Below are positions 2,007 through 56,109 of a stretch of DNA of 64,000 bases, in pieces. The DNA lies in assembly GCA_903928495.1 (NCBI GenBank), contig CAIYQZ010000059.1, positions 17,210-81,209 on the forward strand. Direction: 5' to 3'. Both the position numbers and the translations under genes were made by a program. Position 1 is the stretch's first letter; every line of letters starts with the position of its first letter. This stretch comes from an uncultured bacterium (GTDB lineage Bacteria; Pseudomonadota; Gammaproteobacteria; Burkholderiales; Burkholderiaceae_C). Under the pieces are notes generated by a model. The model had not been told where the DNA came from. It made no database searches and saw nothing but the letters and a program-made list of their open reading frames with translations.

Positions 2007-3308
2007 TCAGGATTTGCGCTGCCAGACAGCGGCAAAAAATCCATCGGTGTCGTGACGGTGAGGCCACATGCGAAGGTAGGGCCCACTGCACAGATGGGCC
2101 GCTGCATCGGCCGGTGTGCGCCCGCCCGCAGGTGCCTCAGACGCTTCCTGGCCCAGCAAACGCTCCAGCAGGCCGGGCACCGGCAGCAACTCAAAGTCAG
2201 GGTGCGCGGCAGAGAACGCCTCGGCAACAGCCTCGTTTTCTTCCGGCAACACGCTGCAGGTCGCGTACACCAACCGGCCACCGGCTTTCACCAGCCGCTG
2301 CGCACTGGCCAGGATGGCGGTTTGTTTGGCTTGCAGCTCCAGCACACCTGCGGCGGTTTGGCGCCACTTCAAGTCGGGGTTGCGGCGCAGGGTGCCCAAG
2401 CCCGAGCAGGGCGCGTCCACCAGCACGCGGTCCATCTTGCCCGCCAGGCGTTTGATGCGCTCGTCGCGCTCGTGAGCGATGGCCACCGGGTGCACATTGG
2501 ACAGGCCGCTGCGGGCCAGCCGGGGCTTCAAGGCATCGAGCCGGTGGGCCGACACATCGAACGCGTACAGCCGCCCGGTGTTGCGCATGGTGGCGCCAAT
2601 GGCCAGGGTTTTGCCGCCTGCGCCCGCGCAGAAATCGGCCACCATTTCGCTGCGCTTGGCTTCCAGCAACCAGGCCAGCAGTTGCGAGCCTTCGTCTTGC
2701 ACTTCCAGCTCGCCGCTGATGAATGCGGGCAGCTTGTTGATGGCGGGTTTGCCCTGCAACCGAATGCCCCAGGGCGAATATGGCGTGGGCGCACCCTCCA
2801 TAGCAAACTTTTTAAGCTGATCAAGCGCTACAGGCCGTTTTTGCTTGTAAATGTTCACGCGCAAGTCCAACCCGGCAGGCTCGTTCATGCTGCGGGCCAG
2901 CGCTTCAAACTCGTCGCCCACCTGCGCTTTGAGCGGGGCCACCAACCAGTCGGGCAAGTTGTGGCGGTGGTGGGCCATCAGCTCGTCTGGCCGCACGCGG
3001 GCAGTGCCGTCCAGCCACAAGCATTCCTGCTCGTTCAGGGCAGACTTGATGAAATTGCGGTCGCCATGAAAACCCAAAATGGCCAGGCGGCGCTCGCGCG
3101 GGCCAGAGCCTGATCGGGCCAGATGCTCAAACAGCAGCTTCTGCCGCAACACGGCGTACGTGGTTTCAGCCAGGGTGTTGCGCTCGCGCGGGCCGAGGTT
3201 GCGGTTCTCACGAAAGAAACGGGACACCACGGCAGCGGCCGGGTGGTCAAACTTCAATACCAGTTGCACCAGGGCGGTGCAGGCGTCTAACAGGGCTTTG
3301 GGGTGCAT
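2007..3308 (-). CDS. RsmB/Sun (NOL1/NOP2) family RNA m5C methyltransferase
   Basis: NusB-like N-terminus, SAM motif DFCAGAGGKT, catalytic DAPCSGLGTLRRNPD and ATCS motifs. ATG at 3308 is preferred over the GTG at 3329. Confidence 0.8.
   Translation of the reverse strand: MHPKALLDACTALVQLVLKFDHPAAAVVSRFFRENRNLGPRERNTLAETTYAVLRQKLLFEHLARSGSGPRERRLAILGFHGDRNFIKSALNEQECLWLDGTARVRPDELMAHHRHNLPDWLVAPLKAQVGDEFEALARSMNEPAGLDLRVNIYKQKRPVALDQLKKFAMEGAPTPYSPWGIRLQGKPAINKLPAFISGELEVQDEGSQLLAWLLEAKRSEMVADFCAGAGGKTLAIGATMRNTGRLYAFDVSAHRLDALKPRLARSGLSNVHPVAIAHERDERIKRLAGKMDRVLVDAPCSGLGTLRRNPDLKWRQTAAGVLELQAKQTAILASAQRLVKAGGRLVYATCSVLPEENEAVAEAFSAAHPDFELLPVPGLLERLLGQEASEAPAGGRTPADAAAHLCSGPYLRMWPHRHDTDGFFAAVWQRKS
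2800..2842 (+). repeat. 42-bp motif copy A (inside the rsmB-like CDS)
   Basis: ATAGCAAactttttaagctgATCAAGCGCTACAGGCcgTTTTT. Read on the gene strand it encodes KRPVALDQLKKFAME. Confidence 0.7.
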
Positions 3309-3376
3309 GGAGCAGATTGTCCCATGCACCCCGTGCCGTCGGTGGCCACAAACCGGTGCGGGATAATCTCGCCCCT

Positions 3377-4996
3377 ATGTCAGACATCTCCACCCAGGTG
3401 CGCCGCCGCCGCACCTTTGCCATCATCTCCCACCCCGACGCCGGTAAAACCACCCTCACCGAGAAGCTGCTGCTGTTCTCGGGCGCCATCAACATCGCCG
3501 GATCGGTCAAGGCCCGCAAGGCCGCCCGCCACGCCACCTCCGACTGGATGGAGATTGAAAAGCAGCGCGGCATTTCGGTGGCGTCCAGCGTGATGCAGAT
3601 GGAATACCGCGACTGTGTCATCAACCTGCTCGACACCCCCGGGCACCAGGACTTCAGCGAGGACACCTACCGCGTGCTGACCGCCGTGGACGCCGCGCTG
3701 ATGGTGATTGACGCGGCCAACGGCGTGGAGCCCCAAACCCGTCGACTGCTGCAGGTCTGCCGAGCCCGCAACACCCCCATCCTGACCTTTGTGAACAAGA
3801 TGGACCGCGAGGTGCAGGCCCCGCTGGACGTGATGGACGAAATCGAACGCGAGCTGGGCATGACCGTGGTGCCGTTCACGTGGCCCGTGGGCATGGGCAA
3901 ACAGTTCCACGGCGTGTACGACCGTCGCACCGACCAGATGCGCGTATTTGCCGCCGGTGAGGACCGCGCAGGTGGCGACGAAGACGTGTTGTCCGGGCTG
4001 GACAACGCTGACACCGCCAGCCGCTTTGGCATGGAATGGACCCAGGCCAAAGACGAAATGGAGCTGGTGGAAGGCGCATCACCTGCCTTCGATGAAGCAG
4101 AGTTTCTGGCTGGGCGCCAGACGCCCATGCTGTTCGGTTCGGCCATCAACAACTTCGGCGTGCGCGAGGTGCTGGACGCGCTGGTGGACCTGGCCCCACC
4201 GCCCGGCCCCAAGCCGTCCATCCAGCGCGTGGTGCAGCCAGTGGAGCCCAAGTTCACGGGCGTGGTGTTCAAAATTCAGGCCAACATGGACCCCGCCCAC
4301 CGCGACCGCATTGCCTTTGTGCGTGTGGCCAGCGGCAAGTTCGAGCGCGGCATGCCCCTGAAGGTGGTGCGCAGCGGCAAGGTGATCAAACCCAACACGG
4401 TGGTCACCTTCATGAGCCAGCGGCGCGAGTTGCTGGACGAAGCCTTTGCCGGCGACATCATCGGCATTCCCAACCACGGCGTGCTGCAGCTGGGCGACAC
4501 GCTGACCGAGGGTGAGCAACTCCAGTTCACCGGCCTGCCCTTCTTTGCGCCCGAAATCATCCGCAGCGTGGAAGTGGCCGACCCGCTGCGCGGCAAGCAG
4601 CTGAAGGCGGGCCTGACGCAGCTGGGCGAAGAAGGCGCCATCCAAGTCTTCCGCCCCATCGCAGGCAGCGTGCTGATGCTGGGTGCCGTGGGGCAACTGC
4701 AGTTTGAAGTGGTAGCGCACCGGCTAGAAGCCGAATACGGCGTGAAAGCCCGCATCACCGGCAGTCCGTACCAAGTGGCCCGCTGGGTGACCTGCGCGCC
4801 CGAAGACGGCGGCGAGCAGGAGCTGAAACGCTTCATTGACGCCAACCAGCACCGCGTGGCCTTGGACGCCGTGGACGCCCCCACCCTGCTGGTGGACCAC
4901 AGCGCCACCCTGCGCGCGGTGGAAACCAGCTGGCCCAAAATCAAGTTCCACGCAATGCGCGAGCATGCGGGGCTGGTGTTCCACAAGGCGATGTGA
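3377..4996 (+). CDS. prfC: peptide chain release factor 3
   Basis: MSDISTQVRRRRTFAIISHPDAGKTTLTEKLLLF... has the GTPase G1-G4 motifs and full-length RF3 similarity. ATG at 3377. Confidence 0.95.
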   Translation: MSDISTQVRRRRTFAIISHPDAGKTTLTEKLLLFSGAINIAGSVKARKAARHATSDWMEIEKQRGISVASSVMQMEYRDCVINLLDTPGHQDFSEDTYRVLTAVDAALMVIDAANGVEPQTRRLLQVCRARNTPILTFVNKMDREVQAPLDVMDEIERELGMTVVPFTWPVGMGKQFHGVYDRRTDQMRVFAAGEDRAGGDEDVLSGLDNADTASRFGMEWTQAKDEMELVEGASPAFDEAEFLAGRQTPMLFGSAINNFGVREVLDALVDLAPPPGPKPSIQRVVQPVEPKFTGVVFKIQANMDPAHRDRIAFVRVASGKFERGMPLKVVRSGKVIKPNTVVTFMSQRRELLDEAFAGDIIGIPNHGVLQLGDTLTEGEQLQFTGLPFFAPEIIRSVEVADPLRGKQLKAGLTQLGEEGAIQVFRPIAGSVLMLGAVGQLQFEVVAHRLEAEYGVKARITGSPYQVARWVTCAPEDGGEQELKRFIDANQHRVALDAVDAPTLLVDHSATLRAVETSWPKIKFHAMREHAGLVFHKAM

Positions 4997-6112: not shown

Positions 6113-6967
6113 TCAGCCCGCCACCACCCGCTGCGTTTGCACGCCCAAGCCTTCCACCCCCAGCCGCATGGTTTGCCCGGCGCGCAAATACACCGGGGGT
6201 TTGTGGCCCATGCCCACGCCGGGCGGGGTGCCAGTGGTGATGACATCGCCCGGCTGCAAGGTGGTGAAGCGGCTCAGGTAGCTGACCAGAAACGCCACGC
6301 CGTAAACCATGGTGGCGGTGCTGCCGTTTTGGCGCAGCTGGCCGTCCAACTCAAGCCACAGCTTCAGCGCCTGCGGGTTGGGCACTTCGTCGGCCGTCAC
6401 CAGCCAGGGGCCAATGGGGCCGAAGGTGTCAAAGCCTTTGCCCTTGTCCCAGGTGCCGGCGCGCTCCAATTGGTATTCGCGCTCGGACACGTCGTTCACC
6501 ACACAGTAGCCCGCCACGTGGTTCAGCGCATCGGCTTCGTCGATGTAGCGCCCGCCCTGGCCAATGACCACGCCCAGCTCCACTTCCCAATCGGTTTTCA
6601 CCGAACCACGGGGGAGTTGCACCGCGTCGTCGGGACCGCAGATGCAACTGGTCCATTTGGTGAACACCACTGGCTCGGGTGGCACGGCCATGCCCGCCTC
6701 GGCTGCGTGGTCGGCGTAATTCAGGCCAATGCCCAGGAACTTGCCCACCTGCCCCACACAGGCGCCCAGCCGCAGGTCCTGCTGCGGCACACCGGGCACC
6801 AGGGGCAGGCTGTCGATGTCCAGCGCCTTCAACCGGGCCAGGCTGGCGGGCAGCAGGGCGTCGCCGGCCAGGTCGGGCACCACGGCAGACAGGTCCCGCA
6901 CGCGGCCCTGTGCGTCGAGCACACCGGGTTTCTCTTGGCCTACCGGGCCGTAACGCAGCAATTTCAT
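6113..6967 (-). CDS. fumarylacetoacetate hydrolase (FAH) family protein
   Basis: MKLLRYGPVGQEKPGVLD..., GIGLNYADHAAE, EVELGVVIG and GDVITTGTPPGVG are typical FAH/2-keto-4-pentenoate hydratase-like motifs. ATG at 6967. Confidence 0.9.
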   Translation of the reverse strand: MKLLRYGPVGQEKPGVLDAQGRVRDLSAVVPDLAGDALLPASLARLKALDIDSLPLVPGVPQQDLRLGACVGQVGKFLGIGLNYADHAAEAGMAVPPEPVVFTKWTSCICGPDDAVQLPRGSVKTDWEVELGVVIGQGGRYIDEADALNHVAGYCVVNDVSEREYQLERAGTWDKGKGFDTFGPIGPWLVTADEVPNPQALKLWLELDGQLRQNGSTATMVYGVAFLVSYLSRFTTLQPGDVITTGTPPGVGMGHKPPVYLRAGQTMRLGVEGLGVQTQRVVAG

Positions 6968-6980
6968 GGCAATTTCCTTG

Positions 6981-7021
6981 TAGCTACAAACCAACACACA
7001 GCAAGCGATGCAGGCCAATTT
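6981..7021 (+). repeat. 42-bp motif copy B (intergenic, left flank of the Type III R-M island)
   Basis: TAGCTAcaaaccaacacacAGCAAGCGATGCAGGCcaATTT. It lies 13 nt from the FAH start codon and 19 nt from the res stop. Confidence 0.7.
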
Positions 7022-7039
7022 GGCCTTACATTTCTGCTG

Positions 7040-10030
7040 TCAGAATGGAGTGGGTACTAAGTGATCAATCAGTTGCGCTAACTGCTCGTGGTTGATTTTG
7101 GTCTCGTACTTCACTGGAACGCCTTGTGCCTGCAATGCGGCAAAAAACCGCCGTGCGCTTTGAATCTTCCACCGCTCGCGTTCGGGCACCTCTGCCTCGT
7201 TGTCGTAGCCTTTGGTCTCCACTACTAGGTAAAGCGCCTCGGTGGCACCAGCGCGGCGTATGACATAGCCAAAATCTGGGTTGTACTTGCCAGCCGGTGT
7301 GGGAATGTTGATTTTGGGCAGCTTGGCAAACACCGTAATGCAGTCGTGCTGGGATTCGTCCACGGTGTCGCGCTCAATTTGGCTGTCCACCGGCATCACG
7401 TTTTCAACGTACAGCGATTTGGCTCGCACCACCGCATTGCCTATCGTGTGCGCTTCTTTGCCGCACAAAGCCAGTGGGATGGTTTTCAGCAAGGTGCCGG
7501 TGTTGTCGGTCAACGCCGTTGTCGCCCGGATCTCCCGCAACTCGTAACTCACCCTGTTCACCAGCAATTCGTGCACGCTGCGCAAGATCAGGTCACGCAG
7601 TGTGAGCAACGCCCGGTTCTCGTTGTGCTGAATTTGCGCAAATTTATCGGTGGGCATTCGGGCCAATACGCCGCTGATGGTGTGAATGCTCAGCCGCGTT
7701 TGGTTGGCCAATTCCCGCACAAACCCTTGCAAACTCAACACCGCATGGGGCTTGACCGTGTAGCTGTTTTGCGTGCTTTTGACTTCATGAACGCTTTGCA
7801 CATCGCTGGTGCGCGTGATGCGAACAGACAGCGGGCGGACATCAAAACTTTGCGCAATTCGGTTCAGCACGCTTCGCATGAGCCCTTCCGTATCCAGCTC
7901 GTAACGCAGCACCGCATGGCGGTTCAGGTTTTCCCAAAGGTGGCGAAACTGCTGGTAACTGACCAAGTTGGGTGTGAGGTTGGCTTGGGTTTTGTGCTGC
8001 TTATTCTTGACTTGTCCTGCGCTGTCGTAGTAAGCGTCCAGATACGCCTGCATGTTGGCAGCGTTGTGCGGCTCAATGCCCGGTATGCGCAACATGTTGG
8101 CCAAAATGCTTGCCCGCTTGGCATGGTAGGTGTCCCGGCTCATCACAAGCGTGGCTTGTCCGGTCAAGTCATCCAGCTCCACCACATCCAATGCGGCTAA
8201 AGCGTCCAACACCCGGTTGGCCAGTCGTGTGCTCAAGGCCACGCCAGCTTCGGCCAACAACTTGTCGTCAAACACCCGCGCCACCCGCTTGACGCTGTGC
8301 TGCGCAATTTCGCCCTGAATGGCAGCCACAAAATCACCCTCGCTGGCGGGCACCACCACGGTCAGGTCATTGATTTCGTCAAACGCTGCATCGTCGGCCT
8401 GCACCCGCTCCAGTTGCTGGTTCACTGCCAGGCGCAGGCCACGGCCAATTTGTTGCAACTTGCTGATTTTGGAATTGCTGGGGGCCAGTTTACACAGCGT
8501 GAAAACATTGGGGTTGTCCCAGCCTTCTTGCAGTGCCCACATGGAAAAAATGAACCTCAAATCCGTCTCAAACGACAGCAGTTTTTCCTTCTCTTGCAAG
8601 ATCAACTTGATGGCTTCTTCTTCGCCCTTTTCGCTGTGCGAGCGGGCAAAGTAGCCTTTGTGCACCTTGCCAATGTCAGTTTGGGTGCGCTGCAAATATT
8701 CACGGTAACCCTCATCGAGCTCCGGCTTGCCCAGTGTTAGCGCCAGGTGGTGACGGTAATGGCGCTCAAACGCCTCGCGCACCACCGCAGACTGGGTTTT
8801 GCCCCCCGCAGTTGCAGGCAGGTATTTGCCCACCGCATCAATGAAAAACAGCGTCAGCGACTTGATGCCGCGCTTGAACAGCTCTTCCTCACGCTCAAAG
8901 TGGTTGGCCACAGCACGCTCGATGATGAGCGATTGCACCTCATCGGCCAGCATGCCGTAGGCCGTCGGTTCACCCAGGGGCAGTGCAAAACCGTTGGTGA
9001 ACAGCAGCTCTTTGGCAGTGATTTTTTCCACCACATGGCCACTTAAAAAATCAAGCCCGGTTTGCTGACCCAGGTTGTCTTTGGCTTGCAAGCTCACGCT
9101 CGAGGCTTGCCCAGCGAGCGTTTGGTGGCCCACACGGGCAGTGCGCTCTTTTGCGCTGCCCGTCACCTCATGCAGGCACAGCACCTGCGCGCTGTCATGC
9201 CCCGTGCCCACGGTGTCCACCGTGATGCCCTTGACCAGCCGCTGGCGAAAAGCCTCCAGGCTGTCCAGCGTGTAAACAAGGTTGCGGTACTCGTCTTTTT
9301 TGAAAGTGGCCCCAAACCGGATGGTCAGCAGCGGGTTGAACTTGGCCAAATACTCCTGTACCACCTTGCCCTCAAAACGGTGCGGCTCATCAATGACGAG
9401 CACGGGCCGAATGTGCGCCAGCGCTTCCATGTAGCTTTTGGCCCGGCCAAACAAGTTGGCCTCGACGCCGCGCTTGTTGATGAGCTTGCTGTCCCCGGCA
9501 AACGACTGGTAGGTGGCCACCATCACCGACAACCCCAGGTTGGCAGCACTGATGAAGCCCTTCACCGTTTTGTCTGAGTAATTGACAACGTTGATTTTCT
9601 GGTTGTTGTACTCGCGGGCAAAAAACGCCGCCGTGGTTTGCAGGCTTTTCAGAGTGCCTTGGCGAATGGCGTTGCTGGGCACCAGCACAATGAATTTGGA
9701 CAACCGGTGCTGCTGGTGCAGCTTGTGAATGGTTTCAATGAAGGTGAAGGTTTTGCCCGTGCCCGTTTCCATCAGCACGTCCACATTCAACGCTGGGGTC
9801 AGGCTGCTGGACACTTGCACTGACCCCGTGGTCACGCCATTGGCCTCACGCACACGTGCAATGTTGGCTTTCAGCGTGGCATGCGCTTCGGCCTGCGAAA
9901 ACGTGGGGTTGGCCTGCACATCGGTGGGCGGAGCAAACCGCACATCCGCAAACACATCGGCGATCGAGCGCACCGCTTGCGCTTGGTGCGCCAGGCGGGT
10001 GTATTGGAATTGGGGCAATGCCATGGTCAC
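7040..10030 (-). CDS. res: Type III restriction enzyme, Res subunit
   Basis: 996 aa. SF2 helicase motif I METGTGKTF, motif II VIDEPHRF, and C-terminal PD-(D/E)xK (NPDFGY...VVETKG). It overlaps the mod stop by 4 nt. Confidence 0.9.
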   Translation of the reverse strand: MTMALPQFQYTRLAHQAQAVRSIADVFADVRFAPPTDVQANPTFSQAEAHATLKANIARVREANGVTTGSVQVSSSLTPALNVDVLMETGTGKTFTFIETIHKLHQQHRLSKFIVLVPSNAIRQGTLKSLQTTAAFFAREYNNQKINVVNYSDKTVKGFISAANLGLSVMVATYQSFAGDSKLINKRGVEANLFGRAKSYMEALAHIRPVLVIDEPHRFEGKVVQEYLAKFNPLLTIRFGATFKKDEYRNLVYTLDSLEAFRQRLVKGITVDTVGTGHDSAQVLCLHEVTGSAKERTARVGHQTLAGQASSVSLQAKDNLGQQTGLDFLSGHVVEKITAKELLFTNGFALPLGEPTAYGMLADEVQSLIIERAVANHFEREEELFKRGIKSLTLFFIDAVGKYLPATAGGKTQSAVVREAFERHYRHHLALTLGKPELDEGYREYLQRTQTDIGKVHKGYFARSHSEKGEEEAIKLILQEKEKLLSFETDLRFIFSMWALQEGWDNPNVFTLCKLAPSNSKISKLQQIGRGLRLAVNQQLERVQADDAAFDEINDLTVVVPASEGDFVAAIQGEIAQHSVKRVARVFDDKLLAEAGVALSTRLANRVLDALAALDVVELDDLTGQATLVMSRDTYHAKRASILANMLRIPGIEPHNAANMQAYLDAYYDSAGQVKNKQHKTQANLTPNLVSYQQFRHLWENLNRHAVLRYELDTEGLMRSVLNRIAQSFDVRPLSVRITRTSDVQSVHEVKSTQNSYTVKPHAVLSLQGFVRELANQTRLSIHTISGVLARMPTDKFAQIQHNENRALLTLRDLILRSVHELLVNRVSYELREIRATTALTDNTGTLLKTIPLALCGKEAHTIGNAVVRAKSLYVENVMPVDSQIERDTVDESQHDCITVFAKLPKINIPTPAGKYNPDFGYVIRRAGATEALYLVVETKGYDNEAEVPERERWKIQSARRFFAALQAQGVPVKYETKINHEQLAQLIDHLVPTPF

Positions 10031-14851: not shown

Positions 14852-15979
14852 ATGGACTTCGATTTCTCCGACGACCAGGCGCAACTGGCCGATGCCGTGT
14901 CCCGCTGGGTGGACAAGGCCTACACCTTCGAGCGCCGCCGCGCCACCACCGCAGCGGGCGGTTTTGACCGCGCTGCCTACAACGAGCTGGCCGAACTGGG
15001 CCTGACCGGCCTGACCGTGCCTGAAGCACACGGCGGTTTGGGCATGGGGCCGGTCGACAGCATGGTGGTCATGCAGGCACTGGGCCAGGGTCTGGTACTC
15101 GAACCCCTGGCGCAAACCCTGGCCGCCAGCACCGTGCTGGCCCACACCGCTCCGGACGACGTGCAGGCGCAGTGGCTGCCGCGCATCGCCAGCGGCGAAG
15201 CGCTGGTGGTGCTGGCGCATCAGGAGCGCAAGGCCCGTTACCAATTGGGAATTTGTGAAGCAAAAGCGGCTCCAGCGCTTGATGGGTGGACAGTTTCAGC
15301 TATCAAACACATGGTTCCCGTGGGAGACCAGGCAGATGCCTGGCTGGTGCCCGCACGCATTGCAGACGCCTCAGGCGACCGCATGGCGTTGTTTCTGGTC
15401 GAGCGCACAGCCCCCGGTGTGATGGCCACAGGCCACGCCACGCAAGACGGTGGCCGTGCGGCCAATGTCACGCTCACCGATGCCCCGGCAACCCTCGTCA
15501 CCCGCAATGGCCTGGCCGCGCTGGAGCTGGCGGCTGATGTTTCCCTGGCAGCCCTGTGCGCGGAGGCCGTCGGCGTGATGGATAAAACCGTCGCGCTCAC
15601 CGTGGAGTACATGAACACCCGCAAACAGTTTGGTGTGGTCATTGCCAGCTTCCAGGCCCTGCGACACCGCGTGGCCGACATGAAGATGCAGTTGGAGCTT
15701 GCCCGCAGCATGAGCTACTACGCCACGCTCAAGATGGGTGCACCCGCCGCCGAGCGCAGCCTGGCGCTGTCACGCGCCAAGGTCCAACTGGGCCACAGCA
15801 TGCGTTTTGTGGGCCAACAGGCGGTGCAGTTGCATGGCGGCATGGGCGTGACCGATGAAATGCTGGTCAGCCACTGTTTCAAGCGCCTCACACAAATGGA
15901 AATGACCCTGGGTGACACACTGCACCACCTCGGTGTGGTGAGCGACAACATGCAGGAAACCGCAGGCGTCTTCGCCTGA
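14852..15979 (+). CDS. acyl-CoA dehydrogenase family protein (partner subunit type)
   Basis: MDFDFSDDQAQLADAV..., ACAD C-terminal helices (QLHGGMGVTDE). It is adjacent to and co-directional with the previous ACAD. Confidence 0.88.
   Translation: MDFDFSDDQAQLADAVSRWVDKAYTFERRRATTAAGGFDRAAYNELAELGLTGLTVPEAHGGLGMGPVDSMVVMQALGQGLVLEPLAQTLAASTVLAHTAPDDVQAQWLPRIASGEALVVLAHQERKARYQLGICEAKAAPALDGWTVSAIKHMVPVGDQADAWLVPARIADASGDRMALFLVERTAPGVMATGHATQDGGRAANVTLTDAPATLVTRNGLAALELAADVSLAALCAEAVGVMDKTVALTVEYMNTRKQFGVVIASFQALRHRVADMKMQLELARSMSYYATLKMGAPAAERSLALSRAKVQLGHSMRFVGQQAVQLHGGMGVTDEMLVSHCFKRLTQMEMTLGDTLHHLGVVSDNMQETAGVFA
15262..15304 (-). repeat. 42-bp motif copy I (inside the second ACAD CDS)
   Basis: The reverse strand reads GATAGCTGaaactgtccacccATCAAGCGCTGGAGCCgcTTTT. 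The gene strand encodes EAKAAPALDGWTVSAIK. Confidence 0.75.
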
Positions 15980-16006: not shown

Positions 16007-18190
<2,184 letters not shown>

Positions 18191-18293: not shown

Positions 18294-18851
18294 TCAAGCA
18301 TGCAAACGCGAGTGGCGTGGCAAGTGCGCCATCAAAAACTCCATCTGGTCAGCCAGGATGCGGCGGTTTCGCAGAATGAAGTCTTCCCACAGGCTGGGCA
18401 CATAGGGCGCGTAAAGCAGTGGCATGCCCGCCTGCTCGGGGGTGCGGTTGCCTTTGCGATGGTTGCATGAGCGGCAAGCCGTGACGACATTCATCCAGGC
18501 ATCGGGGCCACCTTTGCTGACGGGCCTGATGTGTTCGCGCGTGAGGTCGAGTTCCTGAAAGTGGTCTCCGCAGTAAGCGCACAGGTTTCGGTCGCGGGCA
18601 AACAGTTTGGGGTTGGTGATGCTGGGCGTGGCGCCAAAGGGATTGGCTCCGCCAAAACCCTGCGTGCCAATGATGGAGTTCACGGTGATGACTGATTGCA
18701 AACCTGTCAGCGCGTTGTGCCCACCGTGGAACACGGCCACCTCGCTGCCCATTTCCCAGCGCACCTGACCGGCGGCGTAATGCAGCACAGCCTCTTCCAG
18801 GCTGATCCAGGATTGCGGCAACCCCTGCCCCGAGAGCTTCAAGACTTTCAA
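18294..18851 (-). CDS. HNH endonuclease family protein
   Basis: CAYCG...EHIRPVSKGG...NVVTACRSCNHRKGNRTPE is an HNH/zinc-ribbon motif. The probable TTG start at 18851 follows GGAGG. The longer 261-aa ORF is probably an upstream extension. Confidence 0.7.
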   Translation of the reverse strand: MKVLKLSGQGLPQSWISLEEAVLHYAAGQVRWEMGSEVAVFHGGHNALTGLQSVITVNSIIGTQGFGGANPFGATPSITNPKLFARDRNLCAYCGDHFQELDLTREHIRPVSKGGPDAWMNVVTACRSCNHRKGNRTPEQAGMPLLYAPYVPSLWEDFILRNRRILADQMEFLMAHLPRHSRLHA

Positions 18852-29441: not shown

Positions 29442-29445
29442 CACA

Positions 29446-33282: not shown

Positions 33283-33320
33283 GTTGTCGTCCTCTTGTTG
33301 GAAAAAAATCGGAGTTAGGG

Positions 33321-35183: not shown

Positions 35184-36017
35184 TCAGAAGGTTCCCGCGA
35201 ACGCCCCGCCATCGGCCAGCACGTTCTGCCCGGTGATGTAACCCGCCTGCACGCTGCACAGAAACGCGCAGATTTGCCCGAACTCATGCGGGGTGCCAAA
35301 GCGCTGCGCCGGAATTTGAGCGATTTGCGCAGCGCGCACCTCGTCCACCGTTTTGCCCTGCCTCTGGGCAGCCCCGGCTATTGTTGTTTTGATGCGGTCG
35401 GTGTCGAACTTGCCCGGCAGCAGGTTGTTCAGCGTCACGCCTTTTGCCGCCAGCGTGGGGTTGCGGGCCACGCCCGCCACAAAACCGGTCAGGCCGCTGC
35501 GTGCGCCGTTGGAGAGGCCCAGGATGTCGATGGGCGCTTTCACCGCGCTGCTGGTGATGTTGACGATGCGACCGAAGCCGCGCGCCGCCATGCCGTCCAC
35601 CGTGGCTTTGATGAGTTCGATGGGGGTGAGCATGTTGGCGTCGATGGCCTTCAGCCAGGCGTCGCGCTCCCAGTCGCGGAAGTCGCCGGGGGGTGGGCCA
35701 CCGGCGTTGGTCACCACGATGTCAAACGCGGTGCCGGGGCCACCGGCCACGCCCAGTGCGGCGGCGCGGCCCTCGGGCGAGGTGATGTCGGCGGCCACGG
35801 CCAGCACCACATTCTTCAAGACTTTTTGGCCTCCAGCGCTTGACTGCATTGACAACTCAGCTCTGATATTGTCCGCCGCAGCGTGCAGCACCTCGGCCCC
35901 ACGGGCCACCATCACCACGTTCACACCCTCGGCGGCCAGCGCCTGTGCACAGCCCAGACCCAACCCTTTGCTGGCGCCGCAGACCAGCGCCCATTTGCCT
36001 TGCAAACCCAAATCCAT
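35184..36017 (-). CDS. SDR family oxidoreductase
   Basis: GASKGLG cofactor motif, the NITS...A catalytic region, and PGKFDT. Confidence 0.88.
   Translation of the reverse strand: MDLGLQGKWALVCGASKGLGLGCAQALAAEGVNVVMVARGAEVLHAAADNIRAELSMQSSAGGQKVLKNVVLAVAADITSPEGRAAALGVAGGPGTAFDIVVTNAGGPPPGDFRDWERDAWLKAIDANMLTPIELIKATVDGMAARGFGRIVNITSSAVKAPIDILGLSNGARSGLTGFVAGVARNPTLAAKGVTLNNLLPGKFDTDRIKTTIAGAAQRQGKTVDEVRAAQIAQIPAQRFGTPHEFGQICAFLCSVQAGYITGQNVLADGGAFAGTF
35823..35865 (-). repeat. 42-bp motif copy X (inside the SDR CDS)
   Basis: The reverse strand reads CAGAGCTGagttgtcaatgcAGTCAAGCGCTGGAGGCcaAAAAA. The gene strand encodes RAELSMQSSAGGQK, codon-for-codon alignable with copy G in ileS. Confidence 0.75.
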
Positions 36018-36060: not shown

Positions 36061-36990
36061 TCAGGCCTTGGCCCGGCTGACCCAGAACACGCCGCCCATC
36101 ACCAGCACCGTGCCCACCAGCACCCAACCGTTGAAGGGCTCGCCCAGCAGCAACACGCCCATGGTGATGGTGGACATGGGCCCGATCATGCCGGTCTGGG
36201 CGGTCAGGCCAGAGCCGATGCGCTCAATGGCCATCATCACCATCAGGACAGGTGCGGCGGTACAGGCCACGGCGTTGAGCACCGACAGCCACACCACCTC
36301 GGGCGCGACCAGCGCCGCCGACAGCGGGCGCAGCCACACAAACTGCCCGATGCACAGCACACAGGCCACCGTGGTGGCCAGGCCCACCAGGCGCAATGAG
36401 CCCAGCCGCTTGACCATTTCGCCGCTGTACAGCAGGTACACGGCATAACTCACTGCGCTGCCAAACACCAGGGCGCCGCCCAGCAGGGTGCCACTCGCGT
36501 CAAAGTTCACCTCGTGCCCAAACACCACCAACACACCGGCATAACTCAGCGCCATCGCTCCGGCTTGCCGGCCGGTGATGCGCCGCCCATACAGCGCCCA
36601 CCCCAGCACCAACACCAGCGTGGGGTTGAGGTACAGAATGAGCCGCTCCAGGCTGGCACTGATGTACTGCAGGCCCCAAAAGTCCAGAAAACTGGCGAGG
36701 TAGTAGCCACTGAAACCCAGGCCCAGCACGCCCAGCCAGTCTCGGCGGCTCAAGGCGGGTTGCCCCCGGCTGGCCCACCAGGCCATGGCCAGGAACATGG
36801 GCAGGGCAAACAGCATGCGGTACATCAGCAGGGTGACGGCATCCACTCCGTGCCGGAACGCCAGCTTGACGATGATGGCCTTGCCGCTGAACGCGATGGA
36901 ACCAGCGGCAGCCAGGGTCAGGCCCAGCAGTACTTTTTTTCTAGCTGCCAGTGCAATACCATCAAGCGCTGGAGGCACTTTTCTATCCAA
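36061..36990 (-). CDS. EamA/DMT family transporter
   Basis: Ten TM helices. The only available starts (TTG at 36990, GTG at 36978) lie at or inside motif copy F. Confidence 0.8.
   Translation of the reverse strand: MDRKVPPALDGIALAARKKVLLGLTLAAAGSIAFSGKAIIVKLAFRHGVDAVTLLMYRMLFALPMFLAMAWWASRGQPALSRRDWLGVLGLGFSGYYLASFLDFWGLQYISASLERLILYLNPTLVLVLGWALYGRRITGRQAGAMALSYAGVLVVFGHEVNFDASGTLLGGALVFGSAVSYAVYLLYSGEMVKRLGSLRLVGLATTVACVLCIGQFVWLRPLSAALVAPEVVWLSVLNAVACTAAPVLMVMMAIERIGSGLTAQTGMIGPMSTITMGVLLLGEPFNGWVLVGTVLVMGGVFWVSRAKA
36942..36982 (+). repeat. 42-bp motif copy F (forms the first ~15 codons of the EamA gene)
   Basis: TAGCTGccagtgcaataccATCAAGCGCTGGAGGCacTTTT. A 24-nt stretch (36959-36982) is identical to 46618-46641. 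It encodes DRKVPPALDGIALAARK. Confidence 0.85.
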
Positions 36991-37014
36991 AACAGTTACC
37001 CCACTGGTGCACGG

Positions 37015-45441: not shown

Positions 45442-45444
45442 GCG

Positions 45445-46314: not shown

Positions 46315-49175
46315 GGTGCAGGTGCTGCATTGAGGGTTTTCTTAACCTTACCTGCCTTCCCCACCGCCAGCAAACTGTTCAGCCGCTGGTACAGCTCAAA
46401 CAAAAACGCCACGCGCTCGGCGTCGTTTTTGTAGGCCTTTTTTCCGCCGCAGGCTTCGTAGGCTTTGTCCACGGCGGTGTCGAGTTTTTGGTGGGCTTTG
46501 AGCAGCGCCGGGGGCATGGTGAGCGGGTCGTACAGGTCGGCCAGGCTGCTGGTGGGGAACTGGGCGCGGGCGTCGAGCACGGCTTGGGCGGCGGTTTCTA
46601 TAGCCACTTGCGCTTTTCCATCAAGCGCTGGAGGCACTTTTGACACTGAATTTTCTGTTGGGTTGCAGAAGGGCCAGGGGAAGTTGTTGTAGACGATGGC
46701 GGCGGAGTAGCGGTAATCGCTTTTCAGCCGCCCGCAGGTGGTGCGCACCCAAGCGTTGTGCATGGTGCTAGAAAGGACGCCGAAGTGGAACAGGGTGGCG
46801 TCGGGCAGCACGTAAAGCTGATTTGACGCAATAACTTCTGGGGGCAAAAAGCCTATTGGGATGAAGTTACGACGCTCAGAGCTCACCGTGGGAATGGCGA
46901 GGTAATGGGTACTGGGTTGTCGAATTTCTGCAAACAATGTAGGGGTGTTAGCCAGCTTCTTGGTGGTTTCGCGGTCGCGGGATGCCCGCCACTTTCGAAC
47001 CGCTTCAATCCGTGATAACGCCACTGGCGACTGTCTCAGGCTGGTTGGTGATGCATCTCGAAACCAAAGGCACCAGCGCGGCGTGCTGTGCAACAGTTCT
47101 TCACCTCCCATGAATGGCCGAACAAATTCGGCTATCCGTGAATCTTTGGATTCCAGAGAGTCCTTTGTGCTCTTATCCAACGTGTAGTGGCCATCGTCGA
47201 GCGCGAAACTGCCGTACACCAGCCCCGGGACACCGTTGGTGGGCCTTTTTACAGAGGCAAGTAGCACATCGGGTGCATCCACCAAATAGGGGTTGATGCG
47301 CTGCGCAGGCACGGCGTGGGGCTGGCCCTTGATGTCGTCGTACTCGTGAATGATCTTGCCCGCCCGGTCGTTCAGCCCGAAGCCGACGATGACGCAGTGC
47401 ACGGCGGCTTTGCCCTTAGCTTCGTTGCTCCAGTTGAAGGTGCGGTGGGCAAAGTGAATTTTCACGCCCTGTGCCAGCAGCCAGCTCCACAACACGCCCA
47501 CCTGTTCACCTTGCGTGATGCTGTTGGTGGACACAAACGCGCACTCTGGCAGCACCGCACCTGCCGTACCTGATTCTTGGGCGAGCGCCATGTAGCGCGC
47601 GGCTTTGACGTACCACGCCGACACAAAGTCGAGCACACCAGCGCCCTGGATGTGGCCCATCACCTGCTCAAAGTCGGCTTTTTGTGCGGGGGACTGTTCT
47701 CTTTTGCCCAAAAACGGCGGGTTGCCCAGGACAAAACTGCACCGTTCCGGGGCCAGCATGTCGGCCCAGTCCAGCGTGAGGGCGTTTCCGTGCGCAATGT
47801 GGGGGCTGGTGCGCAAGGGGATGCGTGCGAAATACAGGCCAAACTCTTCGCTGACCTGCAGGTTCATTTGGTGGTCCATCAACCACAGGGCCACTTGGGC
47901 AATTTGGGCTGGGAATTCTTCAATTTCTATGCCGAAAAACTGGTCCACGTTCACGCCAATCAGGCTGTGCACGTCCACGCTGCGTTGGCCGGCGTTGCCG
48001 CTGAGTTCGTGGCTGGCGCGCAGCACGGCCAGTTCCAGCAGGCGAAGTTCCCGGTAGGCAATGACCAGAAAGTTGCCACAGCCGCAGGCGGGGTCAAAAA
48101 ACGTGAGGTGGCGCAGCTTTTGGTGAAACTCAAACAGGCGGTTGCGGTTGCCTTTGACCTTGCCAAACTCGGCCCACAGCGCGTCCAGAAACAGGGGCTT
48201 GATGAGTTTTTGGATGTTTTCTTCGCTGGTGTAGTGCGCGCCCAGGTTGCGGCGGGCCTCGGCGTTCATGATGCTTTGGAACAGGCTGCCAAAGATGGCG
48301 GGGCTGATGGCCGACCAGTCCAGCGCGCAGGCATCGAGCAGGGCCTCGCGCATGGGGGCATTGAAGTCGGCCAGGGGCAGGCTTTCTTCAAACAGCTTGC
48401 CGTTGATGTAGGGGAAGCTGGCCAGTTGCGCGTCCAGGTGGGTGCTGCGCTTGGGCTCTGCGGTGTTGAGCACCTGAAACAGTTGGGCCAGGCGGGCACC
48501 CAGGTCCGAGCCGTCGGGCTCGGTGCGCTCCTCCACAAAGGCGCGAAAGGCCTGTGCGGGCTGAAAAATGCCGGTGTCGTCGGCAAACAGACAAAACAGC
48601 AGGCGCACCAGCAGCACCTCCAGCGGGTGCTCGGTGTAGCCGCTGGCTTTAAGTGCGTCGTGCAGCTTGCCCAAAGCGGCAGCGGCTTTGACGTTGACGG
48701 GGTCTTGGGCGCGAATAACCTGGGCCTTGTAGCCGGCCAGAAAGCCGAACAGGCGCACGTGTTTGTGCAGGTCTTTCAGCGCAAATTCCAGCGTTTCGTC
48801 GGGGCGTTCTGCGGTGGCCAGGCGGTGCACGCGCATGCGGGCAAAGTCGCACACCACAATGAGTTGGGGCAAGTCGCGCTCGGCGAGACCGGGGAAGTAG
48901 CCCAGGGCTTGGTCAAACGCGGCGTCCAGGTTTTTGCCCAGCGACTTTTGCTCGACCAGCAGCATGCCAGGCCAGAACAGATCAACAAAGCCTTGACCGC
49001 CACCGTGTTTTTTGACTGCCAGCTCGAAGGTCGCCACGCGTTTGTCGGTGATGCCGAAGATTTCGAAAAACGCCAGCCAAAAGGGTTTGGCATGGCTGTT
49101 TTCGTCCGTTGCATCGGCCCAGGTGCGACTGAAGCTCAGTGCACGGCCCTTTATCTCGTTCCAGCTCAAAGGCAT
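46311..49175 (-). CDS. MmeI-family Type IIL restriction-modification enzyme (fused endonuclease, methyltransferase and specificity domains)
   Basis: N-terminus MPLSWNEIKGRALSFSRTWADATDENSHAKPFW... closely parallels MmeI. Nuclease motif D65-X9-E75-X-K77 (VDLFWPGMLLVEQK), SAM motif FFDPACGCGNFL, and catalytic GNPPFLG. 954 aa. Confidence 0.9.
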   Translation of the reverse strand: MPLSWNEIKGRALSFSRTWADATDENSHAKPFWLAFFEIFGITDKRVATFELAVKKHGGGQGFVDLFWPGMLLVEQKSLGKNLDAAFDQALGYFPGLAERDLPQLIVVCDFARMRVHRLATAERPDETLEFALKDLHKHVRLFGFLAGYKAQVIRAQDPVNVKAAAALGKLHDALKASGYTEHPLEVLLVRLLFCLFADDTGIFQPAQAFRAFVEERTEPDGSDLGARLAQLFQVLNTAEPKRSTHLDAQLASFPYINGKLFEESLPLADFNAPMREALLDACALDWSAISPAIFGSLFQSIMNAEARRNLGAHYTSEENIQKLIKPLFLDALWAEFGKVKGNRNRLFEFHQKLRHLTFFDPACGCGNFLVIAYRELRLLELAVLRASHELSGNAGQRSVDVHSLIGVNVDQFFGIEIEEFPAQIAQVALWLMDHQMNLQVSEEFGLYFARIPLRTSPHIAHGNALTLDWADMLAPERCSFVLGNPPFLGKREQSPAQKADFEQVMGHIQGAGVLDFVSAWYVKAARYMALAQESGTAGAVLPECAFVSTNSITQGEQVGVLWSWLLAQGVKIHFAHRTFNWSNEAKGKAAVHCVIVGFGLNDRAGKIIHEYDDIKGQPHAVPAQRINPYLVDAPDVLLASVKRPTNGVPGLVYGSFALDDGHYTLDKSTKDSLESKDSRIAEFVRPFMGGEELLHSTPRWCLWFRDASPTSLRQSPVALSRIEAVRKWRASRDRETTKKLANTPTLFAEIRQPSTHYLAIPTVSSERRNFIPIGFLPPEVIASNQLYVLPDATLFHFGVLSSTMHNAWVRTTCGRLKSDYRYSAAIVYNNFPWPFCNPTENSVSKVPPALDGKAQVAIETAAQAVLDARAQFPTSSLADLYDPLTMPPALLKAHQKLDTAVDKAYEACGGKKAYKNDAERVAFLFELYQRLNSLLAVGKAGKVKKTLNAAPAP
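46600..46641 (+). repeat. 42-bp motif copy E (inside the MmeI-like CDS, C-terminal region)
   Basis: ATAGCCacttgcgcttttccATCAAGCGCTGGAGGCacTTTT with inner hairpin GCGCTT/AAGCGC. It encodes SKVPPALDGKAQVAIE. Confidence 0.85.
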
Positions 49176-51007: not shown

Positions 51008-51538
51008 TCAACCGGCCAGTGCCGGGCCCAAAGCCGCCCACCAGGCGGCTTTTTTTCGTTCCAGGCTCCAGCTGGCGTTGGCTGGACTGCTGGAGGGCAG
51101 CTTGACCACCGGCACCCCCAACGCCAAAGTGTGCCGGTGGTGGCGAAAACTGGTCGCCCCGTTGTGAGCCACCAGCGCCAGTTGCGGACACACCGCCCGA
51201 AAGGCCGAAAAATCATTCACCGTGGCGTTGCGAATGTCAGCGTCCAGGCTGCCCTGGCGCTCGCAACTGGCGTACACGTCCCACAGGCCCACGCCGTGAT
51301 CCTGCAGCCACCGGCAGCGCTTAGCGTAGTCAGAACCATAGCTGACTTTCTTTTCCAGACAAGCGATAGGGGCTGAAAACATCTCAAATACGTGGGCCAT
51401 GAGGGGCCAGAAGTGGTTGCGCGGGTGGCCGTAGTACTGCTGGGCTGCCAAGGACGCCGCGCCGGGAAAACTGCCCAGCACCAGCACGCGGGTGCGCACA
51501 TCCACCAGGGGCGGCAGCCCCACCAGGCGGGCCGGCAT
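51008..51538 (-). CDS. DNA-deoxyinosine glycosylase (UDG family 6-like)
   Basis: VLVLGSFPGAASLAAQQYYGHPRNHFW is the family signature. ATG at 51538. The longer 312-aa ORF is read-through. Confidence 0.75.
   Translation of the reverse strand: MPARLVGLPPLVDVRTRVLVLGSFPGAASLAAQQYYGHPRNHFWPLMAHVFEMFSAPIACLEKKVSYGSDYAKRCRWLQDHGVGLWDVYASCERQGSLDADIRNATVNDFSAFRAVCPQLALVAHNGATSFRHHRHTLALGVPVVKLPSSSPANASWSLERKKAAWWAALGPALAG
51031..51057 (+). terminator. rho-independent terminator of the mscS-family gene, embedded in the 3' end of the convergent glycosylase CDS
   Basis: AAGCCGCC-cacca-GGCGGCTT followed by TTTTTT, 40 nt after the mscS stop. Confidence 0.6.
51338..51379 (+). repeat. 42-bp motif copy Z (inside the glycosylase CDS)
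   Basis: ATAGCTGactttcttttccAGACAAGCGATAGGGGCtgAAAA. It encodes FSAPIACLEKKVSYG. Confidence 0.65.
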
Positions 51539-51540
51539 GG

Positions 51541-52407
51541 TCAGCCCTTTTCCCACAGGGCGCGCAGACGTGGCAACGCGGCCAGTGCGTTGGCCGTGGT
51601 CTGGGCGGCCAAGGCATCGGGGGTGGTACCCCGCAGCCCCGCCACCAGCGCGCCGATGCGCGGCAGCTCGGCGGGGGTGTTGATGCCTTGGGGTTGCCCG
51701 GCAGCGCGCTGGGCAGCAGTGGCATACAGCCACTGGGGCGGGATGTCGGGCGAATCGGTTTCCAGCACCAGGGCGGTGTCGGGCAGGGTGGCGGCCAGGT
51801 GGCGCAGCTGCCGTGCAGCATCGAACGTGACCGCGCCGCCAAACCCCAGCTTGAAGCCCAGGCGCAGGAAAGCGGCTGCCTGCTCGTCGCTGCCGTTGAA
51901 GGCGTGCGCTATGCCCGCTTGCCCCGGCGCCGGGGCACCGGCCCACACACTGCGCAAGTGTTTGAGCAGCAGGTCAGCACTGCGGCGCACATGCAGCAAC
52001 ACGGGCAAGCCGTGCTGCTTGGCCAGTTTCAATTGGGCGCGGTAAAACAACTGCTGGCGCTCTCGCATGGACGGGGTGCACAGGGCTGGCACAAAAAAGT
52101 CGAGCCCTATTTCACCCACGGCCACCAGGCGCGGGTCAGATGCGTGATGCGACAACGCGGCTTCCAGCTGGACCAGATCGGCCTCGGTCGATTGCGGCAC
52201 CCAGAGGGGATGGATCCCCAGCGCATAGGCATTGCCATGTGCGTGGGCGATGTCTCGCACCACCTCAAAATGGGCAGGATGCACCGCAGGCAGCACACAC
52301 AGCCGCACGCCACACGCAACTGCCGCTGCCTGCACCGCAGCCACACCACCGGCCAACGCCTGGATTTCAGGGGCGTCGAGGTGGGCATGTGTGTCGATCC
52401 AGGTCAT
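51541..52407 (-). CDS. TatD family metal-dependent hydrolase
   Basis: WIDTHAHLD, GEIGLD and LLHVR motifs. ATG at 52407. Confidence 0.9.
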   Translation of the reverse strand: MTWIDTHAHLDAPEIQALAGGVAAVQAAAVACGVRLCVLPAVHPAHFEVVRDIAHAHGNAYALGIHPLWVPQSTEADLVQLEAALSHHASDPRLVAVGEIGLDFFVPALCTPSMRERQQLFYRAQLKLAKQHGLPVLLHVRRSADLLLKHLRSVWAGAPAPGQAGIAHAFNGSDEQAAAFLRLGFKLGFGGAVTFDAARQLRHLAATLPDTALVLETDSPDIPPQWLYATAAQRAAGQPQGINTPAELPRIGALVAGLRGTTPDALAAQTTANALAALPRLRALWEKG

Positions 52408-55071: not shown

Positions 55072-55095
55072 GCGGGAATTGTGGCATCCCGCACA

Positions 55096-56109
55096 ATGCC
55101 CGCCATGTCTGCTGCGCCTTTGCCTTCCCAACGTCCCGTGTCCGTGTCACCCACTCCGGCCCTGCCGCGCCTGCTGTTGTCGTTCGCCTCGGTCCTGGAC
55201 GAAGGCTGCCAAAGCTTGCTGGGCACCCTCGCATTGCCCCATCTCACCCGGTTGCTGGCCCTGGGGCCCACGGTGACGCCTGAAACCCCAGCGCCCACTG
55301 ATGGCGAACGGACGCTGACCCCGCCGCACGAGCGCGCCCACTCCGCACTGCTGGGCATGAGCGCGCCCGACGGCCAAGTGCCTTGGGCCGCGTGGAGCAC
55401 CCACAGCACAACCGCCGCCGCTTGGTTCACGCCCTGCCACCAAGAGGTGGGCAACGGCCACGTCACGCTGCACGACCCGCAGGCGCTGGGCTTGAGCGAA
55501 GCCCATTCCCGCACCCTGCTGGCCGCACTGCAACCCTGGGCGCAGGAAGACGGCATCACACTCACCTGGCACGCGCCCGACCGCTGGCTGGCGCAAGGCG
55601 CTGTGTTTGAAGGGCAGGCCACCGCGTCGCTGGACCGGGTGGTGGGCCGCTCCATCGCGCCGTGGCTGCCCATGGCCCCGGCCGCCGCCCCGCTGCGCCG
55701 CCTGCAAAACGAAGCACAAATGCTGTTCTACACCCACCCTGCGCACGACGAACGGGTGGCCGCCGGGCTGGCCCCGGTCAACGCGTTCTGGATCAGCGGC
55801 AGCGGTGCGTGCCCCACCGCCCCGGCGGGAATTGCTGACAACGTGACGGTAGACGACCGCCTGCGCACCCCCGCCCTGCGCGGCGACTGGGCCGCATGGC
55901 AACTGGCCTGGCAACAACTCGACGCCGAAGTGCTACCCGCCTGGCTGGCCCGCGCGCAAGCCGGTGAGCGGGTGCAGCTCACCCTGTGTGGCGAGCGCAG
56001 CTTCACCACCCTGGCTTGGGGGCCACGCAGCCCCTGGCAACGCTTTCGCGCCAATATTTCAAACATTTTTGGCACCCAGCGCTTATCTGAATTGCTTTCA
56101 CCACTATGA
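55096..56109 (+). CDS. conserved hypothetical protein
   Basis: Long ORF with host-like codon usage. The stop overlaps the recJ ATG (ATGA). The start is uncertain (GTG at 55081 or ATG at 55096). Confidence 0.6.
   Translation: MPAMSAAPLPSQRPVSVSPTPALPRLLLSFASVLDEGCQSLLGTLALPHLTRLLALGPTVTPETPAPTDGERTLTPPHERAHSALLGMSAPDGQVPWAAWSTHSTTAAAWFTPCHQEVGNGHVTLHDPQALGLSEAHSRTLLAALQPWAQEDGITLTWHAPDRWLAQGAVFEGQATASLDRVVGRSIAPWLPMAPAAAPLRRLQNEAQMLFYTHPAHDERVAAGLAPVNAFWISGSGACPTAPAGIADNVTVDDRLRTPALRGDWAAWQLAWQQLDAEVLPAWLARAQAGERVQLTLCGERSFTTLAWGPRSPWQRFRANISNIFGTQRLSELLSPL
56066..56107 (-). repeat. 42-bp motif copy R (spans the hypothetical-gene stop and the recJ start)
   Basis: The reverse strand reads ATAGTGGTGaaagcaattcAGATAAGCGCTGGGTGCcaAAAAA. 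The plus strand encodes IFGTQRLSELLSPL-stop. Confidence 0.65.

Follow-up and report, generated by a model that had tools for sequence, protein, structure and literature searches.

A clade-diversified AT-rich repeat unit of Comamonadaceae, found between and within genes, appears to be held by constraint on its nucleotides

How can an AT-rich motif recur inside ordinary genes of a GC-rich bacterium without breaking their reading frames, and what keeps it there? The question is raised by a 64-kb stretch of DNA from an uncultured bacterium (contig CAIYQZ010000059.1 of assembly GCA_903928495.1, positions 17,210 to 81,209), referred to here as the window, in which a preliminary description had listed, by eye, 14 sites of a bipartite motif of about 42 bp. 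The source belongs to the Comamonadaceae; the isoleucyl-tRNA synthetase (IleRS) of the window has its best matches, at 77-79% identity, in Hylemonella and Extensimonas. We consider it somewhat better than an even bet that the window copies are members of an old family of interspersed repeats that diversifies by lineage within the Comamonadaceae, resembles the repetitive extragenic palindromic (REP) sequences and the Rickettsia palindromic elements (RPEs), and is under lineage-specific constraint at the DNA level.

Within the window, the motif is enriched over shuffled sequence. Its core 16-mer, ATCAAGCGCTGGAGGC, has 7 window matches at up to 3 mismatches versus 1.08 expected, a count reached by 0 of 100 shuffles; four window sites match with at most 1 mismatch, and the copies at 36942 and 46600 have 24 identical nucleotides in common. 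A hidden Markov model (HMM m2) trained on 25 copies from other genomes, with the window unseen, recovered 11 of the 14 listed sites at E <= 0.02. A stricter HMM was built from 29 intergenic copies, all from other genomes, and was set against a null of reversed sequence (1.6 Mb). At 12 bits or more it gave 122 matches in 1.6 Mb of real sequence and 1 in the reversed null, where the top score was 12.6 bits and the next 8.1. Eight of the 14 listed sites are solid, with scores that the reversed null almost never reaches, and three are marginal (22963, 51338, and 29261). The remaining three (21842, 49196, and 32699) are unsupported, having no match in the window with the intergenic-only HMM, although 32699 has E = 0.019 with HMM m2. 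Among the marginal sites, 22963 and 29261 are rescued because orthologous sites in relatives bear strong copies: the ileS site is occupied at 10 bits or more in 21 genomes, with scores of 12-37 bits, and the Nudix site is orthologous to the strongest Acidovorax copies (40-52 bits), with 51.6 bits at the same protein site of locus L033 (position 17751). By this orthology, the copy at 29261 probably has the orientation opposite to that first given.

The window copies are listed below with their extents, strands, and gene contexts. The contexts were assigned by Pfam, which backed the host genes named in the preliminary description. The site as first listed is given in parentheses, and scores are those of the intergenic-only HMM unless another model is named.

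2785..2853, + strand (2800): copy with well-preserved 3' half, antisense inside rsmB (2007-3329, -); 17.0 bits, 3' half only
6965..7033, + strand (6981): intergenic copy between the res stop (7040) and the ATG of an FAA-hydrolase gene (6966); 15.3 bits
12169..12237, + strand (12185): best window copy, intergenic; 32.7 bits, E = 1e-10 with HMM m2
15250..15318, - strand (15262): copy antisense in an acyl-CoA dehydrogenase gene (14852-15979, +); 13.9 bits
22950..23019, + strand (22963): sense-oriented copy at the 3' end of ileS; 8.5 bits
29247..29310, strand not assigned (29261): degenerate copy in the N-terminal domain of a Nudix gene (28659-29444, -); 5.9 bits
32696..32760, + strand (32699): doubtful copy inside qor (32290-33324, -); E = 0.019 with HMM m2, nothing with the intergenic-only HMM
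35811..35879, - strand (35823): copy (3' half) in sense orientation inside an SDR gene (35184-36017, -); 13.9 bits
36926..36994, + strand (36942): strong copy at the 5' end of an EamA transporter gene (36061-36990, -); 24.0 bits, exact 16-mer
46585..46653, + strand (46600): strong copy antisense in an MmeI-family gene (46311-49175, -); 28.3 bits
51337..51399, + strand (51338): marginal copy in a UDG-family gene (51008-51946, -; Pfam); 7.4 bits, E = 1e-3 with HMM m2
56049..56117, - strand (56066): copy forming the 3' end of an open reading frame (ORF) upstream of recJ; 10.0 bits

The 42-bp motif forms the core of an AT-rich unit that extends over about 65-70 bp. From 80 ileS-centered loci of related species, the unit has the quasi-palindromic consensus (A/G)CTAT-N7-(A/G)ATAGCTG-C(C/T)AGCGCTT-loop(7)-AAGCGCT(G/A)G-AGGCC-NN-TTTT-G..AAAA. 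Conservation is strongest in the CTAT and ATAGC boxes, followed by the GC cores of both arms and then by GGC, TTTG, and AAAA; the most conserved box, (A/G)TAGC, has A or G as its first base, reaches about 1.8 bits at each position, and is separated from the inner stem by 3 nt. The GC content of the unit is 47%, compared with 67% in the host contigs. Scanning metagenome contigs with the window core yielded 108 stretches, nearly all of them the full unit in unrelated flanks, and identity among non-orthologous copies is 0.74 over the 46-nt core versus 0.29 in the flanks. Polaromonas has its own variant with sharp boundaries. The element behaves as a single long unit and not as a short word. Separately, two Polaromonas metagenome-assembled genomes (L025 and L030) carry a lineage-specific subfamily, AATAGCTGCTTGAGCAGGATTTACTTGGGTTA..GGCC, that is about 94% identical across non-orthologous sites.

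Family-wide figures are based on sampled loci, about 2 Mb in total. The Acidovorax/Simplicispira/Giesbergeria, Rhodoferax, and Polaromonas lineages carry 1-3.7 copies per 10 kb and the window carries 1.1, and zero copies were found in the sampled loci of Variovorax, Limnohabitans, most Hylemonella, and Sphaerotilaceae-like genomes. With genomes ordered by the unweighted pair group method with arithmetic mean, intragenic presence mostly follows genome-wide presence; presence or absence of the element is genome-wide and goes by lineage. Strands are used almost equally (73 versus 66 copies). Some intergenic copies are common to three genera at an orthologous site and absent from a fourth genome.

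Gene boundaries are occupied, namely, the ends of convergent genes, the spacers of tandem genes, and sites immediately ahead of start codons. Intergenic copies fill entire gaps between genes: convergent genes flank about 10 independent sites, which overlap the stop codons of both; tandem genes flank about 12 sites; and one copy lies in the divergent ribF promoter region, where it is kept across the family. Two window copies, at 6981 and 12185, are intergenic and directly upstream of start codons. The ATAGC end of the former adjoins the ribosome-binding site and start codon of the FAA-hydrolase gene, and the latter occupies the whole 65-nt gap from the purN stop (12237) to the ATG of a DNA methylase gene (12171). 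The copy at 56049..56117 encodes the C terminus of an ORF overlapping the recJ ATG, and its CTAT box provides that ATG, at 56106; this copy is kept at the same recJ locus in metagenome contigs L001-L004 (ENA).

Several further observations concern such boundaries. Five metagenome loci (L101, L135, L134, L091, and L112) have a divergent gene pair whose intergenic region of about 75 nt is the element alone, with one ATG 1-3 nt from the CTAT box and the other 11 nt after the element's GGAGG, which could act as a Shine-Dalgarno sequence. The copy upstream of ribF is kept family-wide, weakly even in Variovorax; at about 18820-19030 of the window, upstream of ribF (19027-20088), a copy was not detected and only a neighboring TATATTG-like box is left. 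The window also carries two restriction-modification systems, a Type III-like res and mod pair (7040-12171, -) and the MmeI-family Type IIL enzyme (46311-49175, -), and the two top-scoring window copies adjoin or sit inside them.

What is conserved within genes can be read from the codons. Motif codons in motif-bearing genomes have a third-position GC content (GC3) of 0.39-0.43, compared with 0.80-0.83 in the rest of the gene, and the same codons in motif-free genomes, which encode similar peptides, have a GC3 of 0.81-0.82. The initial impression that the copies stand out through their A/T-ending codons is confirmed by these values (roughly 0.40 versus 0.82), and the motif uses ATA and GTA, which account for just 5% of Ile and 2% of Val codons in the window genome. 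IleRS identity between bearing genera is about 75%, a distance at which synonymous sites are expected to be saturated, and keeping the motif codons therefore needs an ongoing force. In addition, the 3' arm has clade dialects: AAGCGCT is the form of the window and of Acidovorax-type genomes, and AAGGGCT that of Rhodoferax and Polaromonas. Genic copies track the dialect at the cost of altering the protein: ISV versus IRA in IleRS, GCGC versus GGGC in the acyl-CoA dehydrogenase gene, and LQRL versus LQPL in the Nudix protein. The constraint acts on the nucleotides themselves, neither on the encoded peptide nor on the hairpin.

The same data bear on the possibility that the motif is a chance resemblance among AT-rich patches chosen by eye, or a product of protein constraint. 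Three of the 14 listed sites are indeed unsupported, and the rsmB and ileS peptides are similar in motif-free genera. The preliminary description had further held that the same nucleotides in orthologues of other genera would mean that protein constraint alone explains the similarity. Such orthologues nominally exist, but the inference fails: protein constraint does not explain the nucleotides because motif-free genera encode similar peptides with GC-rich codons. Given this systematic difference in synonymous codon choice between bearing and motif-free genomes, the 122 matches against 1 in the null, and the 24-nt exact repeats within the window, chance or protein constraint is refuted for the well-supported copies and is very improbable as a general account.

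Whether genic copies were inserted or occupy preexisting sequence was addressed by comparing orthologues with and without them. Four genic sites are orthologous across genera, several of which carry the copy there with no indel of the size of the element: rsmB, the acyl-CoA dehydrogenase gene (acd), the 3' end of ileS, and the N-terminal domain of the Nudix gene. No element-sized indel separates bearing from motif-free orthologues at rsmB, acd, and ileS, where codon number is equal in bearing and nearly all motif-free genomes. The rsmB copy corresponds to residues ~163-177, encoding ...KQKRPVALDQLKKFAM, in the RsmB ferredoxin-like domain, and lies within the PF22458 match with no gap; orthologous copies are present at loci L054, L036, and L008, and no indel occurs across 20 orthologues. 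The acd copy corresponds to residues ~134-155, encodes CEAKAAPALDGWTVSAIKHMV, and lies within the match to Acyl-CoA_dh_M (ACAD middle domain); the site has orthologous counterparts in 11 genomes, and the 51 orthologues compared show no local indel. Pfam alignment sets 70 residues against 70 profile positions for rsmB and 80 against 82 for acd, and since the residues fill the profile there is no room for an insert. The ileS copy directly precedes the IleRS zinc finger (KCERCWH), and bearing genomes always have 24 codons there. EarP contains two copies with no net insertion.

Variable linkers behave differently. The window MmeI copy lies in the linker that joins the TRD to the C-terminal domain, encodes NSVSKVPPALDGKAQVAIET, and retains the GCGCTT-7-AAGCGC hairpin. 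It coincides with 11-13 extra amino acids relative to the short homologue L086, which is without a copy, and its ATAGC end overlays ancestral codons for AQAAIE; in another homologue, L085, this site is occupied by a copy of 37.9 bits. Relative to the Pfam profiles, CcmF is 21 amino acids longer at its copy and MnmC is 37 amino acids longer for two copies. The HrpA copy sits in a hypervariable linker of low complexity, where the alignment is uninformative on indels.

Both modes of occupation occur, and a simple RPE model fails at the fixed-length sites. The likeness to RPEs that had been proposed holds in outcome but does not extend to simple insertion, since the rsmB, acd, and ileS copies fill equal-length segments of conserved domains. 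These findings leave little probability for a purely RPE-like element, or for one resembling a miniature inverted-repeat transposable element, of which every genic copy would be an in-frame insertion of extra sequence. Such an element would account for the extra residues at the MmeI, CcmF, MnmC, and HrpA copies and for the recurrence of encoded peptides in unrelated genes, and REPs and RPEs inside ORFs are on record (PMC3733652, PMC10969869). It would not account for the fit of rsmB and acd to their Pfam models without insertion, for codon numbers at rsmB, acd, and ileS that are equal whether or not the motif is present, or for the two EarP copies.

In-frame copies inside genes, first noticed in the window, were found in numbers there and in other genomes. 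Fully intragenic copies made up 34 of 139 (24%) and 47 of 115 (41%) in two samples, and Pfam identified further host genes in other genomes as HrpA, CcmF, MnmC, RecG, EarP, enoyl-CoA hydratase, and a DUF748 protein. Among the intragenic copies read so far, three reading frames recur. One reverse frame, K.PPALDGKAQAAI.., is shared by MmeI, HrpA, enoyl-CoA hydratase, MnmC, and acyl-CoA dehydrogenase; the frame giving K-x-P-P-A-L-D-G peptides, proposed from the window copies, was borne out and extends to the unrelated HrpA, enoyl-CoA hydratase, and MnmC of other genomes. Another reverse frame, ..LQRL.., is used in Nudix, RecG, and EarP, and a forward frame, ..IAG.A...S.., in IleRS, CcmF, and SDR. 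In the common variant, the remaining reverse frame has a TGA and one forward frame has a TAG, which probably explains the re-use of frames. Within the window, the SDR copy at 35811..35879 matches the core 16-mer with 1 mismatch and encodes AADNIRAELSMQSSAGGQKVLKN at residues 51-65. The copy at 36926..36994 overlaps the uncertain start of the EamA gene and reads KVPPALDGIALAARKK; the EamA domain begins at residue 22 of the longest ORF. Apart from these, metagenome contig Ga0116169_1003959 (L138:4879-9511) has four in-frame forward copies over two adjacent predicted ORFs, three of them in a DUF748/OmpA-family protein (6275-9523) with repeated DA..SEAAGA..TSAGG peptide segments.

A short uptake-signal-like word had also been suggested, and this suggestion was not upheld: outside full elements, AAGCGCTGG occurs 6.7 times per 100 kb, compared with 7.7 in motif-free genomes, and was rejected as an uptake-type word. 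Likewise, GCGCTGGAGGC is not enriched outside elements (1.7 versus 1.5 in motif-free genomes), and other sub-words behave alike. The broader idea of a DNA uptake or self-recognition signal has more to recommend it. A competence receptor would prefer the element, and biased uptake with recombination would place copies in situ, as with the uptake signal sequences (USS) of Pasteurellaceae and the DNA uptake sequences (DUS) of Neisseriaceae. Equal-length in-situ copies in conserved genes, clade dialects, genome-wide presence or absence, and nearly equal use of the strands all suit this idea. So do an intragenic fraction near that of the Neisseria DUS and palindromic pairs at convergent gene ends as for USS and DUS (PMC1852404), and the relatives Acidovorax temperans, A. 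facilis, and Verminephrobacter undergo natural transformation (PMC4212676). The latter study saw no cross-species transformation, its competition data hint at sequence-specific uptake, and it reported no uptake sequence. Nevertheless, enrichment of short core words was not seen outside full elements, what is conserved is a unit of about 65-70 bp with sharp boundaries and high identity among non-orthologous copies, some copies add length, and one strong copy is in a mobile MmeI restriction-modification gene, and we regard an uptake signal as improbable. It is also quite unlikely, in our estimate, that a lineage-specific recognition system, perhaps the sequence-specific DNA-uptake machinery suspected in Acidovorax and Verminephrobacter, continually maintains or rewrites sites of about 70 bp in place, those in essential genes like ileS and rsmB included, and so forces Arg/Pro and Ser/Arg replacements that preserve the DNA signal.

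The inner hairpin noted in some copies is present in Acidovorax-type copies, but compensatory covariation is absent. RNAalifold did not find a consensus stem in the family, and on the proposed stem 75.0% of cells are paired versus 74.6% when shuffled, with 3 double changes versus 4.4 expected. By median folding energy, the family does not fall below random 46-mers; strong folding, with energies of -20 to -24 kcal/mol and runs of A and T at the flanks, is confined to Acidovorax-type copies. These results weigh on the alternative that the element is a cis-acting expression signal selected at each site, such as an intrinsic terminator (possibly bidirectional), a reverse-strand sigma-70-type promoter, or a 5' leader. 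The convergent-gene sites overlapping both stops and the folding of Acidovorax-type copies between A and T runs would be expected of terminators. However, 0 element copies were among the terminator-like sites of window positions 1-20 kb and locus L072, and an intrinsic terminator was rejected; the T run begins 7-8 nt past the inner stem. For a promoter or leader speak the several copies that adjoin start codons in the same orientation and the ribF-upstream copy kept across the family. At L072, 2 of 6 copies were flagged as promoter-like on the reverse strand (1015-1042, TTGATC-16-TATCAT, and 17072-17099, TTGATG-16-TATTAT), making up 2 of the 3 sigma-70-like matches in 20 kb. By contrast, a sigma-70-type promoter scan flagged no site at all in window positions 1-20 kb, the usual -10 candidate, TATCAA, is without the critical final T, and orientation relative to neighboring genes is mixed; a promoter role is not clearly indicated. 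No regulatory role is apparent for the mid-gene copies kept in rsmB, acd, and EarP. We consider a per-site expression signal unlikely. Rfam gave no gathering-threshold match in the window and no match with a relevant E value in L033, L054, and L072.

We return to the reading set out at the beginning, a REP/RPE-like repeat family under DNA-level constraint. A lineage-specific trans-acting protein may recognize the double-stranded sequence and spread or maintain the copies, or both, which would make the family a REP/RPE-like system, either selfish or domesticated. Copies in the variable linkers of MmeI, CcmF, MnmC, and HrpA may have originated as in-frame additions. The fixed-length copies in rsmB, acd, ileS, and EarP may instead have arisen by conversion-type overwriting seeded by chance similarity, and would persist since these host protein segments tolerate changes. 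A seed of this kind is conceivable because CTTGCGCTGGCCGCCATCAAG, in rsmB of Variovorax, agrees with the element at 15 of 17 positions.

Several points weigh against this explanation. Conversion between copies that are about 70% identical is expected to be inefficient, which makes recurrent conversion its weak link, and long persistence at orthologous sites suits a host function equally well as a selfish element. No RAYT (REP-associated tyrosine transposase) or other transposase is encoded by the 10 ORFs that are tightly flanked by copies, all of which are ordinary genes (YaeQ, NapC, PIN/FitA, DapA, and similar), and neither terminal inverted repeats nor target-site duplications are visible, by eye, in about 60 distinct flanks. 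Moreover, the family-wide figures come from about 2 Mb of sampled loci.

One copy was also observed outside chromosomes. A plasmid search yielded, as its sole find, the class 1 integron cassette orfF/gcuF of the array dfrA12-orfF-aadA2 (1827 plasmid records), which contains one copy, 82% identical over 60 nt (L087:4001-4060; pCTX-M3, NC_004464.2 66697-66756). This cassette is annotated DUF1010, and the first ~22 positions of the corresponding Pfam family, PF06231, are the translated reverse strand of the element. Translated chromosomal copies score 8-21 bits, under the 25-bit cut-off, and match just positions 1-25 of 66, and PF06231 is annotated as a protein family and not as a DNA repeat. Sequence similarity suggests that the orfF cassette came from a Comamonadaceae-like host and that PF06231 partly models a DNA repeat; both the family and the cassette can be flagged as partly translated repeat.

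To our knowledge, in-frame palindromic repeats in many housekeeping genes have so far been regarded as a peculiarity of Rickettsia. An RPE-like outcome is now seen in free-living, GC-rich Comamonadaceae, at about 1-3.7 copies per 10 kb of sampled DNA. Copies that occupy equal-length segments of conserved domains, keep their nucleotides against strong GC pressure, and change with the clade version point to a force at the DNA level that dictates protein sequence. The element is also a concrete candidate for what gives natural transformation its specificity in Acidovorax and Verminephrobacter.

Searches by sequence, repeat family, and lineage found no description of the element in the literature, and its relation to known systems can be set out by comparison. 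Like RPEs, it consists of dispersed palindromic repeats that lie in frame in unrelated housekeeping genes, encode a recurrent peptide, and occupy orthologous sites in tolerant parts of proteins (PMC10969869). RPEs, compared by description, are about 100-150 bp long, whereas the Comamonadaceae unit has about 65-70 bp; they insert extra residues, whereas several strong copies of our element fill segments of conserved domains without changing their length; and the hosts of our element are Betaproteobacteria, free-living and rich in GC. Lengthening of the host protein by insertion, which characterizes RPEs, was found solely in variable linkers and not at rsmB, acd, ileS, or EarP. The GTAG-REPs, with their RAYTs and their doublet form, REPINs (REP doublets forming hairpins), appear to share with the element a (G/A)TAG beside a GC-rich palindrome and a TAG that at times provides a stop codon (PMC3733652). 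High copy number and a location at gene ends, especially between convergent genes, are further likenesses, as are lineage-specific variants, vertical inheritance, loss of the whole family in some lineages, and occasional REPs within ORFs (PMC3733652). Unlike REPINs, the Comamonadaceae copies are singlets, with an extra 5' CTAT-N7-ATAG box, no compensatory covariation of the stem, an intragenic fraction of 24-41%, and no RAYT gene among the 10 flanked ORFs. The element resembles USS and DUS in that genic copies lie in situ and prefer certain frames, dialects exist, inverted pairs occur between convergent genes, flanks are AT-rich, and relatives are naturally competent (PMC1852404, PMC4212676). 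It differs from them in the length of its unit, the lack of enrichment of the isolated short core, and the length added by some copies. From REPs and RPEs, the element is set apart by the absence of stem covariation together with equal-length embedded copies, nucleotide constraint across genera, and genic copies that track the dialect of their clade.

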